IMG/VR virus record: IMGVR_UViG_2529293069_000015
Span: 1-18,695 of that record
Reading direction: 5' to 3' (one strand)
DNA length: 18,695 nucleotides
Source of the DNA: a virus
Taxonomy: Duplodnaviria > Heunggongvirae > Uroviricota > Caudoviricetes
A program made the position numbers. Of the stretch, positions 6,001-15,000 are shown piece by piece (the first letter of the stretch is position 1; the number at the start of each line of letters is the position of its first letter).

Positions 6001-9000
6001 TGGAAATCTCGGACGAGCCCCAGACCGTTGATGTTCTCCTGCTCTGTGGAGCAGAGCGTGGTCACATCAATATCCTGTTTCTGCCGGCGGTGAACTGGAC
6101 TTCCTTGATGGTGCAGTCCAGGCGCAGATATTCCGCCTTTCCATGTTTCAGCAGTCGCCGGGGCAGATGAAATCATCACCTGCGTCAGCTGTGACGTTCA
6201 TACAAAGCAGACATTCTGCCTCCTGATAATAAAAAACCCGCACGCGGCGGGGTATGGGTTTTGTAGAAAAAAAGAAAAAGTCACACCGTGACCTGAAACT
6301 CCAGGGTTGCACGGTAACAGCGGTTTTCCGGAATATAGTCCTGCATTTCACTGACGGATCCCGGGGCCAGCAGCATTATGGCTTCACGGGCGTCCTGACG
6401 TATCTGACGCGCCTGCGTCACAGTCCCGGCATAAACGTCTATCTGCACCGACACTGAGGACTCCGCCTGCCCGCCCATCACGTCCGCAGACACCGATGAA
6501 ATCAGGCTGAAAACCACCCACGGAAGCGCCACCGACGGCCTGCCATCCAGCAGGGGGACCACATACGGGTACACCTGCCCGCCGGCAAGATGCGCCAGAT
6601 GAGGATACAAATCCGCCTCCGTCATCGTCTCAGTACCTCATCAATGGCCCGGTTCATCCGAGCAATCGCCACCTGCGCTGCCTGTTCACTGCGCACATCA
6701 AACGCCGGGCGCACAAACGGGTGCGGTGGCATATTCACGGTCCCCATTTCCACAAACCGCCAGTAGAAAGCGTTGCGCGGGTTATCCGCCTTCATGGTGT
6801 TATCGCTGTTACCGGTGTCCGGATTAACACCCCGGATATGCACACCGGATTCCATCCCGCCATCGCGGGAGCGCCGGGAAAGGACCACCACATTGCGGCG
6901 CAGTTTTCCCCTGCGTACCGGTGCCCGTGACACCACTTCTTCTTTCAGCACATTCGCACCCGCACGGGTTGCCTCACGCAGCACCCGGTTATTTTCCGCA
7001 CCACTCAGAAGCTGCAAATCGCGGCTGATGTCCTCCAGCCCCGAAAAATCCAGCAGGGTTTCGATCATTTTTCACCTCCCAGCCGACAGAGAATTTCCAG
7101 ACGCCCGCCGGTCGCATCCGGCACGGGCAGCCCGACAACGTTCAGGATCCGGTCACGCCATGGACCACTCAGCACATGAAGTCGTGACGCTGCCGTGATT
7201 TCCCGACCGGACTGACCGCGCACCCAGATGCGGATTTCCGCCTGCGCCATTTCCGCACCGGACTGCATCCGCTCCCGGCTGCTCCTGCCTCGGATATCCG
7301 CATGAATTTTCCCGCATGACACCCATTCTTCCGTCATTTCTCCGGCAGCGTTACGGGTTAACACCGGGTTCAGAACACTTATCATCTGTGTCAGACGACC
7401 TGCAGATATTGCCATTCCCCCTCCTCATAACACCGTCGGACAACGCAAATCGTAAATCAGCACGGAAACAGAAAACGGCAGCTCCCCCTGAAGCAGTTCT
7501 TCCCGCTCCGCAAGATCCGGATTCCGGTACAGCATCCCGGTCAGTCGCATGGCAGCCCCCTTCATCCGGGTTAATGCCTCGCCCGGGATCAGTTCACCGT
7601 CCTCACGAATCACTTTATCCCGGCTGCCCTGAATGTAGGCCAGCAGCACGGCGGTAGCCTGACGAACCTTGTCCATCAGCATGTCATCATCCGCGTCATG
7701 GTCGACACGCAGATGTGCCTTGATCTCTTCCAGTGTCAGTAATGCCGTCATTTTCCGCCTCCTGCATCCCGTCCACGTTTGGCAGCCAGGGTCCAGCCTG
7801 ATGAATGAGCTTCTCCGGGTTTATCACCGGTCATACTGTTGCAGTGCCACAGCGAGCCCCCCCACGTCACCGTATCGCCGGGGTGGTAGGTTTCACCGGC
7901 TCTGAACACACCGCGGTAGAGCATCACCGGCAGGGAAAATGTTTTTTCCGTACGCTGGCCACTGCTCTGCCGGACCACCACAGAGAACAACCGTTCACCC
8001 GTCATGCTGACGTCAATATCCGCCACCCCGTCAACCAGGCATTCCCATCCCCGCATCCCGTGCGTTTTTTCATACGCCCGCCAGAGTCCGCCCTGGTGTG
8101 TGGCATACGTGCCCCGGGGAAAGGATTTTTGATCGTCAATGGCAGGGAGTATTTCCAGTGCCGTGGCATCACGCCCGTCCTGCGGAGCCGGCAGGGCACT
8201 CACCGCATCCAGAACAGCCTTCTGCAGAACATCGGGATCATAGTCACGACCATCACGCGGAACAGGAATATGGCTTACCGCCTCCTTCACCATCTGTTCA
8301 AGCATCGGACGCACATCATCCGGGGTGAGACTTTTACCGTCTGCCGGCTGCGGAATATTTGCGACCGCATCATTCACCGCCTTCTGCAGAACATCCGGAT
8401 CGTAGTCACGACCATCACGCGGAACAGGGATATGGCTTACAGCCTCCTTCACCATCTGTTCAAGCATCGGACGCACATCATCCGGGGTGAGACTTTTACC
8501 GTCCGCCGGCTGCGGAATATTTGCGACCGCATCATTCACCGCCTTCTGCAGTACTTCCGGATCGTAGTCACGACCGTCACGCGGAACAGGGATATGGCTT
8601 ACCGCCTCCTTCACCATCTGCTCAAGCATCGGACGCACATCATCGCCCGTCACGCACTTCTGTAATACCACAGACAGGGAAGCCAGTTTCTCTTCAAACG
8701 CTTGTGCCTGCGGGCCATCTTCCCCTCAAATGTGCGCTGTAAATCCGCCAGCACTGTGGAAAATTCTTCTCCCAGGCACGGATAATGGACAGTTCACGTT
8801 CATTCATTTTTTCAGAATCCCCCTGAACATCGCCTTCACCGCATCATGCTCTGTTTCAGTGATTGCCTTATTACCGTCAGATGCGCCGTCAGGCCTGTGC
8901 ACTGAAGCTGTTTTCCCGGCCGACGCGAACGGATCTTCACGGGCATCACGACGGGACAGCGCCTCCAGACTGTAGTTCTGCTGCTGAAGATACAGTGCAT

Positions 9001-12000: not shown

Positions 12001-15000
12001 TAATGGCCGCCCAGGCCTCATCCAGCCGGGCAGCCAGTTGCGACGGCATATCCGGTACGGGCTTCACCAGTGTTGCCGTGATTTCCAGACCTTCACTGAC
12101 CCGGCGCACCGTACACTGGCCCACCGGACGGGAATAGTCATGCTGCCAGAGAAACGGGATCGCACTGCCAAACTCCGCGCCCTCCGGCTCCAGGATGTCA
12201 CCATCCCGATCCGGAGAAGGCGTTGACGCAATCCCGGTGATCACCCGTTCATCCTCACTGAAGGATTTCACCGTCAGCAGGGAGCAGGCCCGTTTAAGAG
12301 TCACATCAGCCTCCTGAAAATAAAAAAACCGCCGCAGCGGTCCATGATGGTTACAGGGTGAACAGGGTTATATGAAAAAAACCGCATATTCTTTCTTTTT
12401 CGGCTCCGGATTCAGGGACATCAGGGATACCGCATTGAAGAGCGCCATCAGCGGGTCAATTTTTCCCCGTCCACTGGCCTGTTTGGTGATAAGAATGGCG
12501 TTACCTTTAGGCTCCACCCGGGCATTGCCGACACACCAGGCCATCAGGGGCTGGTCACCATGCACCAGCACCCCTTCAGCCAGTTTGCGCTCGGTGGTTT
12601 TAATGGCCCCGCCCAGTTTCCAGCCCTGGCTTATCCCCACCACAATTCCGTCGGGGATCCCGGCTTCCGCCAGTGAATCCAGAATCTGCCCCACACCTGA
12701 CGGGTCAATACCGATATGCTCCAGTAACTCAGCCTCATGAATACGACGCACATACTCCGCCACTTCCGCCGTGTCATCCCCGACCCGACGGACAATCGTC
12801 ATGTCTCCACAGGCAACAAGATCCTGAAACCGGGACGCCTCGCTCTTCCGTCGGACCACCGCGGTTTCATGCGCCCAGGCATGGCCCCAGCCCAGCCATT
12901 CGCGGGTTTCCCTGTCACGGCCAATCACGTACATTCCCAGCAGATCATCCAGGCCCCCGCCGTCAATCCCCACCGTCACCACATCAGCGCGCTGCAGGAT
13001 ATCGTCCAGGCTGACGCGCCTGCCCTGCTGCTCCCAGAAATCCGCACCCGCCCAGCGGTCAGAACGCAGGGCAAGACCAATTTCCACATTGGCATGTTTT
13101 GACATGAAGCCACGAAATGCTTCCTCACCAGCCTCCCGGGCTTTACGGTACTCCCGGTACAGAAAAGCCTCATCCACCGAATAACCGAGATTCGGATTGA
13201 CCATGGCGAGGTTTTCCATCAGCAGGTGAGCCCCGCTTTCCACCATTTCAGGAGGATGCTCAAAAATCACCGGCAGAAAGTGCGGATCATGAATTTTGCC
13301 GTCACGGACATCCCGGGCGTACTGCAGTTTCTGTCTGAACACCCCGGCTGGCGGCTCATTCGACTGGGTGGTCGTATACACCACAAACCCTTCCGGGCGG
13401 GAGGCAAGGCCGCCTATGGCTTCACGTAACATGTCCTCCGCTTTGTACTGCTTGCCAAATAACCACAGTTCATCAATCAGCGTCCCCACGGACTTGATAC
13501 CGGATACCGTATTCGGATCGGCAGCCACCACCTTAAGGGTGGTGTCCGTCACCCTGTGGGTGATGGTCCGGATATGTGTCTGCACCTGACAGAGGTCATC
13601 CAGATCATCGTCCCGTCGTACCATATCCCTGGCAGGGTTGAAGGCGTTAGCCGCCACCTCCACGGTCGGGGCCAGAATGGTGTAGCCCGCCGCCTGCCGC
13701 CAGTTCAGTAACAGCGCCGTCATCATGATCCCGGCAGCCAGCGTGGACTTGCTGTTTTTCTTGGGGATAAGGATAAAAACTTCCTTGATATGGCGACACC
13801 GGTCTGCGCATCGTAGGAGCCAAACAGGGCCGCCACCAGGTCAAACACCCACGGTGCACAGGACTCCCCGAACGTCGGGCTACCCGGTGCATCCACAATC
13901 CGCAGTTGTTTAAAAATCGCCAGGGCATGTGCGGCCTCGTCCGGATAAATCGGAGCCGGAATAATCGACAGCCCCTTTTTCAGGCGCTCTGCCCAGTCCG
14001 GGCAGGCGTGCTCCAACAGGTATCATCCGTTGCCCTCATTATCTTATTCACCACCAGCGGGGTGGTGGTGGCACCGCAAAACGGTTAGCCGCTTTTTTCG
14101 CGGCATCACCTTTTGCCGATTTTTTCCCGGTATCCCCTTTTTTATGGTGCGTGAACTGCGCCAGACGCCAGGCCGCATCCAGTGCCAGTTTCGGATCAAT
14201 GCAGAGGTTTTCCACCAGGATCCGCCCCATGGCTTTCACCGGATCGGGAAGACCATCCTCCATATATTCAATACCAGGAGACATCACCGCGGACGGTGGC
14301 ATCTCCAGATTGTTTTCGTCCGGCTGTGGTATTGCAGCCGCCTCACGGCGACGGGGTTTATCCTCCTGCTCTGATTTTTTCTGCCGGTAAACAGGAACCT
14401 CATCCACCTCCACCGTCTCGCATTGTTTACGGGCTATAAACGCAAGCACCTCCGGATCTTTTGCCAGCTGCGAGCCTTTAACCCTGGCGTCTTCGCCGAA
14501 TAACCGGCGGCAAGGCTGACGCTGTTTTGTTTTTCCCGGACATGAGCGCCAGCGCAAATTTTCGTTTTTGCGTTGTCAGCACAGCCTCCTCCCGGGTCCA
14601 GAACGCACTCAGCCGGGTATGGTTCAGCCCATTTTTCCCGGCGTCTCATGCCGCAAATGTTAACTGCTGCCTGGTTAACATTTGCTGAAAAAGCCAGTTA
14701 ACATTTTTTCCGCACAACAAACTGAATAATAAAGATAAAAACCGCAAAAAGGCCCGAACAGCCAGTTAACATGTTAACTGCCTGAAACGGGAATTTTTTC
14801 TCTGCATGAGAGGGGGCGCGGTGTCCGGAGCGATCGTTTTTTTCGCCGGATGATCCCCCCCGGGGCGGGTCACAGTCCGATGATATCGTCTGCCCTGCCA
14901 TGACCTCCGGACACCTCCGGCAGCGTCGGGTCCGGCATACCACCCGCCGCTTCACGAGCAGACTTTTGTCGATGGCATTCGGTACAGAGCGTCCAGAGAT

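Follow-up and report, generated by a model that had tools for sequence, protein, structure and literature searches.

Head genes in an unusual order very probably form a native, inherited module of Escherichia coli lambdoid prophages

We studied 18,695 nucleotides (nt) of viral DNA, positions 1 to 18,695 of the IMG/VR record IMGVR_UViG_2529293069_000015 (Caudoviricetes), hereafter the window. It is the late region (packaging, head, neck and tail) of a prophage, 18.7 kb in all, and on its minus strand the prohead protease and major capsid genes lie between the large terminase and the portal instead of following the portal. A preliminary description had taken this order for either a real rearrangement or a misassembly. 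Our results show that the order is real, that misassembly is at odds with the collinearity and junction spacing of its relatives, and that there was no rearrangement of this genome, since the layout is that of a whole lineage. We consider it very probable that the window carries the native, inherited head module of the long-tailed Stx1a/Stx2c (Shiga toxin) phages of the phage 2851 type, in a lambdoid prophage of Escherichia coli, and that the breaks in its genes are sequencing drop-outs.

Proteins were identified with Pfam and PHROG profile searches (Table 1). Read along the minus strand, the genes are those of the small terminase (TerS), the large terminase (TerL), an S78 protease, an HK97-fold capsid, a 73-amino acid (aa) open reading frame (ORF; p73), the portal, a repeat protein, the Ad1 connector, a head closure protein, a gp10-like protein and the tail. 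These identities bear out the order first described, from terminase through protease, capsid, 73-aa ORF, portal and repeat protein to connector. They also amend the gene list in two respects: the protease and the capsid are best read as fragments of a single gene, of 645 aa in relatives, and the true start of the repeat protein is at 8807. The repeat protein does stand in the slot usually held by the protease and capsid, as had been remarked, but nothing points to a functional replacement.

By its components, the module is of the HK97 type. It shares with canonical HK97 modules the families of the portal (PF04860), protease (PF04586), capsid (PF05065) and type-1 neck proteins (Ad1, Hc1 and gp10-like; PF05135, PF05521, PF04883), the latter encoded downstream of the head genes. 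Its large terminase, with ATPase and nuclease domains, is intact in the relatives; in the window, one piece (12368-13726) matches PF20441 (2.2e-10) and phrog_9 (6.8e-120), and the N-terminal piece (13723-14016) matches phrog_7622 (2.5e-50). Unlike the canonical module, this lineage has the portal after the capsid, the protease and capsid in one ORF, and an extra fibre-like gene between portal and adaptor. The usual order TerL-portal-protease-capsid is thus absent from the window and from all relatives examined, which have TerL-protease/capsid-p73-portal. That usual order is a convention, not a strict criterion of the family, and the module stays HK97-type.

The strongest evidence that the order is native comes from close relatives. 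We used the 6.7-kb block from TerL to Ad1 (window 7400-14100) as a megablast query, and counted the records in which at least 80% of it was covered. The block was collinear in 91 of the 94 matching phage records, at 94-97% identity (coverage was 98-100% in the listed records); these are mostly Stx1a-, Stx2c- and Stx2a-converting phages, and two of the matching records name the host strain of phage 2851. With the same criterion, the search of 5,426 complete E. coli genomes found the block at 90-98% identity in 1,249 genome records (1,244 genomes; median, five copies per genome). On the finished chromosome of the O157:H7 strain LSU61, our base-level reference, the window aligns as a single 14-kb piece from 1432 to 15405. 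The four annotated relatives that we compared (LSU61, Stx1_EH1995, TR01 and phage 2851, which is Pankowvirus pv2851) all have the gene order of the window, with a TerS of 187 aa, a TerL of 553 aa, a protease-capsid of 645 aa and an ORF of 73 aa, followed by portal, repeat protein and adaptor. The synteny comparison that the preliminary description had called for therefore reveals a known lineage arrangement, shared by intact relatives.

These comparisons bear directly on the possibility of an assembly artefact, in which a protease/capsid segment was wrongly joined between terminase and portal. The base-level quality of the window is poor (58 insertions or deletions relative to LSU61) and its order departs from the common HK97 layout, both of which favour such an accident. 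Yet three of the four junctions that had been questioned have the same spacing in the relatives, namely a 63-nt gap between TerL and the head gene, a 44-nt gap between capsid and p73, and a 55-nt overlap between p73 and portal. The fourth, at the end of the portal (8804), shows the same ATGA stop/start. Hence, an artefact would have to reproduce the order and junctions of 1,249 genome records and 91 phage records, and the order of 26 distant loci, while aligning in one piece to a finished chromosome and preserving a regulatory-looking element that is conserved at the TerL/head-gene junction. We give it next to no probability, and as far as sequence comparison goes misassembly is excluded.

The near-identical, collinear DNA from TerL to Ad1 places the window in the head-module group of phage 2851. 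The order, gene lengths and intergenic spacing, at 94-97% identity, are those of phage 2851 and of other long-tailed Stx1a, Stx2c and Stx2a phages and O157-type lambdoid prophages. The match of a head module alone assigns no genus, because Pankowvirus is demarcated on whole genomes and lambdoid phages are mosaic. Phages of this genus were purified and imaged as siphoviruses, that is, as long-tailed virions (PMC12502783; PMC12029490), so the layout works in real phages. The window differs from phage 2851 by frameshifts in TerS, TerL, protease-capsid and repeat protein, by an unfused portal, and by one repeat unit fewer in the repeat protein. The order was already known from public records, having been annotated for years and being present in more than 1,000 finished genomes. 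Odd as it looks, this layout is the normal one for a head module that ranks among the commonest in prophages of pathogenic E. coli, and it should not be flagged as a rearrangement.

The arrangement is also found far from E. coli. With the 645-aa fusion protein as query, a scan in which each bacterial species was represented by one genome found 29 loci. They occur in Enterobacter, Kluyvera, Citrobacter, Pantoea, Erwinia and other Enterobacterales and, beyond this order, in Hydrocarboniphaga, Marinobacter, Snodgrassella, Chelativorans, Mesorhizobium and two metagenome-assembled genomes (one of Hyphomicrobiales, one of Caulobacteraceae). Synteny was assessed by tblastn with intact E. coli phage proteins, for which these 29 species-representative genomes provided 26 informative loci. 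In each of the 26 loci whose flanks were long enough, the portal came after the capsid; TerL stood ahead of them in 25 and was not detected by tblastn in the remaining one (L025). TerS, p73, the repeat protein and Ad1 also occurred in many of the 26. The small p73 is annotated as hypothetical in the relatives and is kept between capsid and portal in the Enterobacterales and Snodgrassella loci, with conservation restricted to its N-terminal ~60 residues.

Two of these loci, analyzed with Pfam, separate the order from other peculiarities of the module. Snodgrassella alvi has a TerL of 575 aa, a separate S78 protease of 234 aa, a separate capsid of 439 aa, a portal of 473 aa and a gp6-like adaptor but lacks a fibre gene, whereas Chelativorans has TerL, a fused S78-capsid ORF of 677 aa and the portal. 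Because both keep the order, the latter is independent of the protease-capsid fusion and of the repeat protein. The synteny of these loci rules out a rearrangement private to this genome. It indicates that the arrangement is old and predates the divergence of these prophage lineages, which extend over several proteobacterial classes, from the prophages of E. coli to those of alpha- and betaproteobacteria.

If the order is inherited, the state of the genes still needs an explanation. The poor quality of the sequence, suspected from the start, is confirmed by the 58 differences in length from the closest complete genome; its effect is limited to reading frames and does not extend to the order. 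Most of these differences are clustered 1-nt deletions: 25 in 5549-6194, 13 in 11448-11685 and five in 13796-14057, with further ones at 14489 and 14514. The clusters leave the major tail gene destroyed and the genes of protease-capsid, TerL and TerS in pieces, and isolated deletions at 8713 and 8776 frameshift the 5' end of the repeat protein. The deleted bases are outside homopolymers. Their density reaches 3.7-5.0 per 100 nt within the two main clusters, against 0-0.04 elsewhere, but substitutions show no excess (0.8-1.2 per 100 nt in clusters, 1.7-1.9 outside). When the gaps are filled from LSU61, stop-free frames are recovered for TerL (556 codons), protease-capsid (666), repeat protein (365), major tail protein (260) and tape measure (1,090). 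Given this clustering, the lack of a substitution excess, the non-homopolymer context and the restoration of genes by gap filling, the 1-nt deletions are best read as low-quality base calling rather than prophage decay.

The alternative is that the order is native and the broken genes stem from genuine decay of a cryptic prophage. Defective members are frequent among the O157-type lambdoid prophages, and the window has a fragment of an insertion sequence (IS) transposase at 533-1054 and no match to the relative left of 1432. Some of its differences also look like genuine mutations. The tape measure (1555-4790) is split into ORFs of 584 and 501 aa by a 7-nt deletion at 3072, in a CTGCTGC repeat, where slippage may have caused a genuine mutation. 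A duplication of 10 nt at 14903 looks genuine too, as does the lower copy number of the 162-nt unit of the repeat protein; the window and LSU61 share this state, one unit fewer than in EH1995 and phage 2851, which marks it as a genuine allele. However, decay would have to account for 12-13 one-base deletions in 238 nt and ~25 in 646 nt, all of them deletions and none in homopolymers, with essentially no indels between clusters. This fits no known mutational pattern, and we regard decay as an unlikely source of the breaks. On the drop-out reading, base-calling errors account for the apparent separation of protease and capsid into two genes, for the split in the terminase and for the truncation of the repeat protein, and any inference at the level of genes requires that the deletion clusters be corrected first.

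A few points weigh against the reading that we favor, of a native module with drop-outs. Our literature searches retrieved no publication with an explicit description or explanation of this order, so it counts as known on the strength of annotated public records, not of a published analysis. The IS transposase fragment does truncate the tail region, and judged on sequence some of the 1-nt deletions may be real mutations of a decaying prophage. Finally, three features discussed below, an internal start in the capsid gene, a single late transcript and the translational coupling of portal and repeat protein, are sequence-level inferences.

The protease and the capsid, two ORFs in the window as read, are encoded by a single 645-aa coding sequence in LSU61, Stx1_EH1995, phage 2851 and TR01. 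All the E. coli relatives that we inspected have the two in one ORF, as do 23 of the 25 distinct loci from distant genomes. The profiles already hinted at this: phrog_617 ("major head protein", 626 positions) matches the protease ORF with positions 7-249 and the capsid ORF with positions 320-626, and phrog_2271 ("portal", 859 positions) likewise covers the portal ORF and the repeat protein. As each of these profiles spans two ORFs of the window, both pairs can be single genes in relatives. The capsid moiety opens with a coiled-coil-like extension that corresponds in position to the delta domain of HK97. Where the protease gives way to this delta-like region, we found an in-frame ATG preceded by AAGGAA, a Shine-Dalgarno-like (SD) motif. 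Nearly all of the 25 aligned homologs have, in the same column, an ATG, or a GTG, TTG or ATG within two codons of it, 6-10 nt after AAGGA or GGAGG; locus L025 has neither a start codon of these three kinds nor a clear SD there. The residues encoded at the SD vary among homologs (KGN, KGK, KEK, QEG, REG), and the separate capsid gene of Snodgrassella begins exactly at the column of the internal start.

An internal start that is conserved together with its ribosome-binding site is expected of nested genes, and the fused ORF is most likely a nested gene with two products. Of these, a minor full-length chain of protease, delta domain and capsid would be made alongside a major delta-capsid protein translated from the internal SD and ATG. 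Co-assembly of the two would carry the protease into the prohead. The nested in-frame protease and scaffold genes C and Nu3 of phage lambda are comparable, in that the long ORF opens with a protease and an in-frame internal start would provide the abundant assembly protein. Unlike in lambda, the nested product here would be the capsid protein with a delta-like domain, not a separate scaffold. The likeness, drawn from sequence, is one of working principle and not of membership. Nothing specific turned up in our literature searches on the fusion of protease and capsid in Stx phages. Actinobacteriophages (Arthrobacter clusters AU, AW and AN, Microbacterium cluster EE) have a recognised annotation class, "major capsid and protease fusion protein". 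These also have a prohead protease and an HK97-fold capsid in one ORF, but they infect other hosts and are only weakly similar (phrog_4523, E = 4e-10, in the protease part); the comparison concerns the fusion.

The gap between TerL and the head gene contains a GC-rich hairpin and a T-run, followed by GGAGG and the GTG start. This is the only terminator-like site on the gene strand in 7300-14700. The hairpin, T-run and SD occupy the same position in the Enterobacterales, Marinobacter and Snodgrassella loci, where stem length and sequence show matched changes. Promoter-like and terminator-like sites in 7300-14700 are no more numerous than in shuffled sequences, and only the position and the conservation of the gene-strand hairpin are noteworthy. 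The conservation of the element implies that the junction at 12304-12368 is native. The hairpin might serve to pause transcription, to attenuate it or to stabilise the transcript.

At the other end of the module, the portal and the repeat protein are joined in some genomes and separate in others. In the window, the ATG of the repeat protein overlaps the portal stop as ATGA, and the gene encodes 407 aa where intact in EH1995 and 353 aa in the window allele. A run of five G residues (G5) precedes the portal stop. Phage 2851 and most E. coli copies have six (G6), which yields a single "portal" ORF of 859 aa. Between flanks of the phage 2851 type, exact G6 occurs in 747 complete-genome records and G5 in 29, whereas between window-type flanks exact G5 occurs in 55 records and G6 in none. 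The excess of 747 records over 29 speaks for the G6 fusion being a real allele, dominant in E. coli. A one-off sequencing error in phage 2851 is ruled out as its source, G6 being the majority allele in complete genomes. Part of the homopolymer variation may nevertheless come from errors in long-read assembly. In other Enterobacterales, the two ORFs are separate and overlap by ATGA, with agaggatt or aaaggaat in place of the G-run.

A programmed -1 frameshift at the G-run would produce portal and portal-fibre fusion in a fixed ratio. The repeat ORF is indeed in the -1 frame, G5 lies 19 nt before the portal stop between the rare codons AGG and ATA, and the insertion of one G gives the in-frame 859-aa fusion that is common in E. 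coli. Yet there is no X XXY YYZ heptamer, and the frame junction between portal and repeat protein has no conserved slippery sequence: the G-run is confined to the E. coli lineage, and other Enterobacterales keep the ATGA overlap and the repeat protein's own ATG. Stand-alone homologs of 350-420 aa are the norm. Programmed frameshifting thus seems very unlikely, and we retain the interpretation of a fusion polymorphism. A second homopolymer also varies: it is intact in the window, but LSU61 and TR01 have one base fewer, which truncates the C-terminal domain of their repeat protein. This explains why the NCBI Prokaryotic Genome Annotation Pipeline (PGAP) calls a "frameshifted portal" in these two genomes. 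The shorter tract could be real or a long-read homopolymer error. The portal/fibre polymorphism leads the same pipeline to give this label to many copies.

What the repeat protein does can be approached from its architecture: a long N-terminal helix, helix-loop repeats of 27/54 aa (motif IPxPxDGxD) whose number varies and, at the C-terminus, a conserved beta domain. In the window, the 162-nt (54-aa) unit is present in 2.6 tandem copies at 96% identity (8217-8644). Many "partial" homologs in databases are probably due to this repeat breaking short-read assemblies. The C-terminal domain matches CBM5/12 in Pfam at 2.2e-4, below the gathering score. Foldseek aligns it with chitin-binding domains (2rts, 2d49 and that of ChiB) with probabilities of ~1.0 and weak E-values (2e-3 or worse), and the closest viral models in BFVD are collagen-repeat and tail-fibre-like proteins. 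The AlphaFold2 (AF2) model behind these matches is poor (mean pLDDT, the predicted local distance difference test, of 57), and the fold matches, which concern the C-terminal ~50-110 residues, are indicative only. A sequence search of the PDB with the repeat-protein profile gave insignificant coiled-coil matches only. Stand-alone homologs are common in Klebsiella, Pantoea, Serratia, Enterobacter and Pseudomonas, under inconsistent, inherited names ("portal", "gp6-like connector", "carbohydrate binding domain"). From these models and matches, the protein appears to be fibre-like, with a probable glycan-binding tip. It shares the long N-terminal helix, the repeats and the C-terminal beta domain with phage fibre or decoration proteins that have CBM5/12 tips. 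Its gene differs from those of tail fibres in its place, with the portal on one side and the adaptor on the other, and in its frequent fusion to the C-terminus of the portal.

The tolerance of such a C-terminal extension of the portal suggests that the fibre-like protein normally sits at the portal vertex. More tentatively, this CBM5/12-tipped protein may be a physical part of the vertex, and would form a twelve-fold appendage if the fused form is built into virions; we see this as a possibility, and not the likelier outcome. If true, the appendage would be of a kind not described for HK97-type portals, with its fusion and its C-terminal integrity set by two homopolymer tracts. With the conserved internal start as well, the lineage would represent an unstudied form of HK97-type head assembly. 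The nested start, the conserved hairpin and the portal/fibre polymorphism are modest, incremental and testable leads, which touch on the delivery of the prohead protease and on the composition of the portal vertex.

The late genes of lambdoid phages are expressed as one transcript under Q antitermination. By analogy, the head genes of the window would be expressed from a single late transcript of this kind, and gene order would therefore not be needed for their expression. The order may instead be kept by the linkage of interacting partners, the portal adjoining its binding partner Ad1. The ATGA overlap would couple the translation of the portal to that of the fibre-like protein downstream.

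Table 1. Features of the head module and neighboring genes in the window (sizes in relatives are given where the window copy is broken)
Feature	Position	Strand	Evidence and remarks
TerS, frameshifted in the window	14023..14582	-	phrog_641 2.7e-45; coordinates mapped from the LSU61 annotation; 1-nt deletions at 14044, 14057, 14489, 14514
TerL, 553 aa in relatives	12368..14026	-	split into ORFs of 97 and 452 aa; 1-nt deletions at 13796, 14008, 14016
Hairpin and T-run, then GGAGG and GTG start of the head gene	12326..12343	-	in the 63-nt gap between TerL and head gene
Fused gene: S78 protease, delta/scaffold-like linker, HK97-fold major capsid	10380..12304	-	645 aa in relatives; ORFs of 255 and 331 aa in the window
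Protease ORF	11537-12304	-	S78 prohead protease, PF04586 5.5e-9
Capsid ORF	10380-11375	-	HK97-fold, PF05065 1.2e-14
Candidate internal in-frame capsid start	11726..11743	-	AAGGAA 11743-11738, ATG 11728-11726
73-aa ORF (p73)	10114-10335	-	phrog_829 2.3e-37; 55-nt overlap with portal start
Portal, 454 aa, intact	8804-10168	-	PF04860 1.8e-81; phrog_2271 positions 1-451
G5 tract (C5 on + strand), 19 nt before portal stop	8819..8823	-	four-way alignment, ORF structures, allele counts
Fibre-like repeat protein, 353 aa once repaired	7748..8807	-	phrog_2271 positions 559-859; ORF as read 7748-8671
Second variable homopolymer (C7 on + strand)	7857..7863	-	W-G-G codons of the repeat protein's C-terminal domain; intact in the window
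gp6-like head-tail adaptor Ad1	7425-7751	-	PF05135 1.5e-7, phrog_40 1.3e-30; start overlaps repeat-protein stop
Head closure protein	7065-7415	-	PF05521 1.9e-17
HK97 gp10-like neck protein	6622-7068	-	PF04883 1.2e-9

The surroundings of the module deserve brief mention. Upstream of TerS lies the remnant of an HNH endonuclease gene (14875-15235), which the annotation of LSU61 gives as partial and that of EH1995 as "DNase"; the 10-nt tandem duplication at 14903 (ACCTCCGGAC) falls within it. HNH genes adjoining terminase genes are typical of HK97-like cos packaging modules. At the opposite end, the transposase fragment (533-1054, + strand; phrog_1157 2.5e-35) adjoins truncated minor tail genes (937-1562), and the prophage of LSU61 ceases to match at 1432, so that the tail region appears to be interrupted by an IS element. 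The G+C content is 55-61% over the head-tail region (~1000-14500) and 43-51% at both ends of the window, in the lysis and IS regions, a contrast consistent with a mosaic origin of the structural module.

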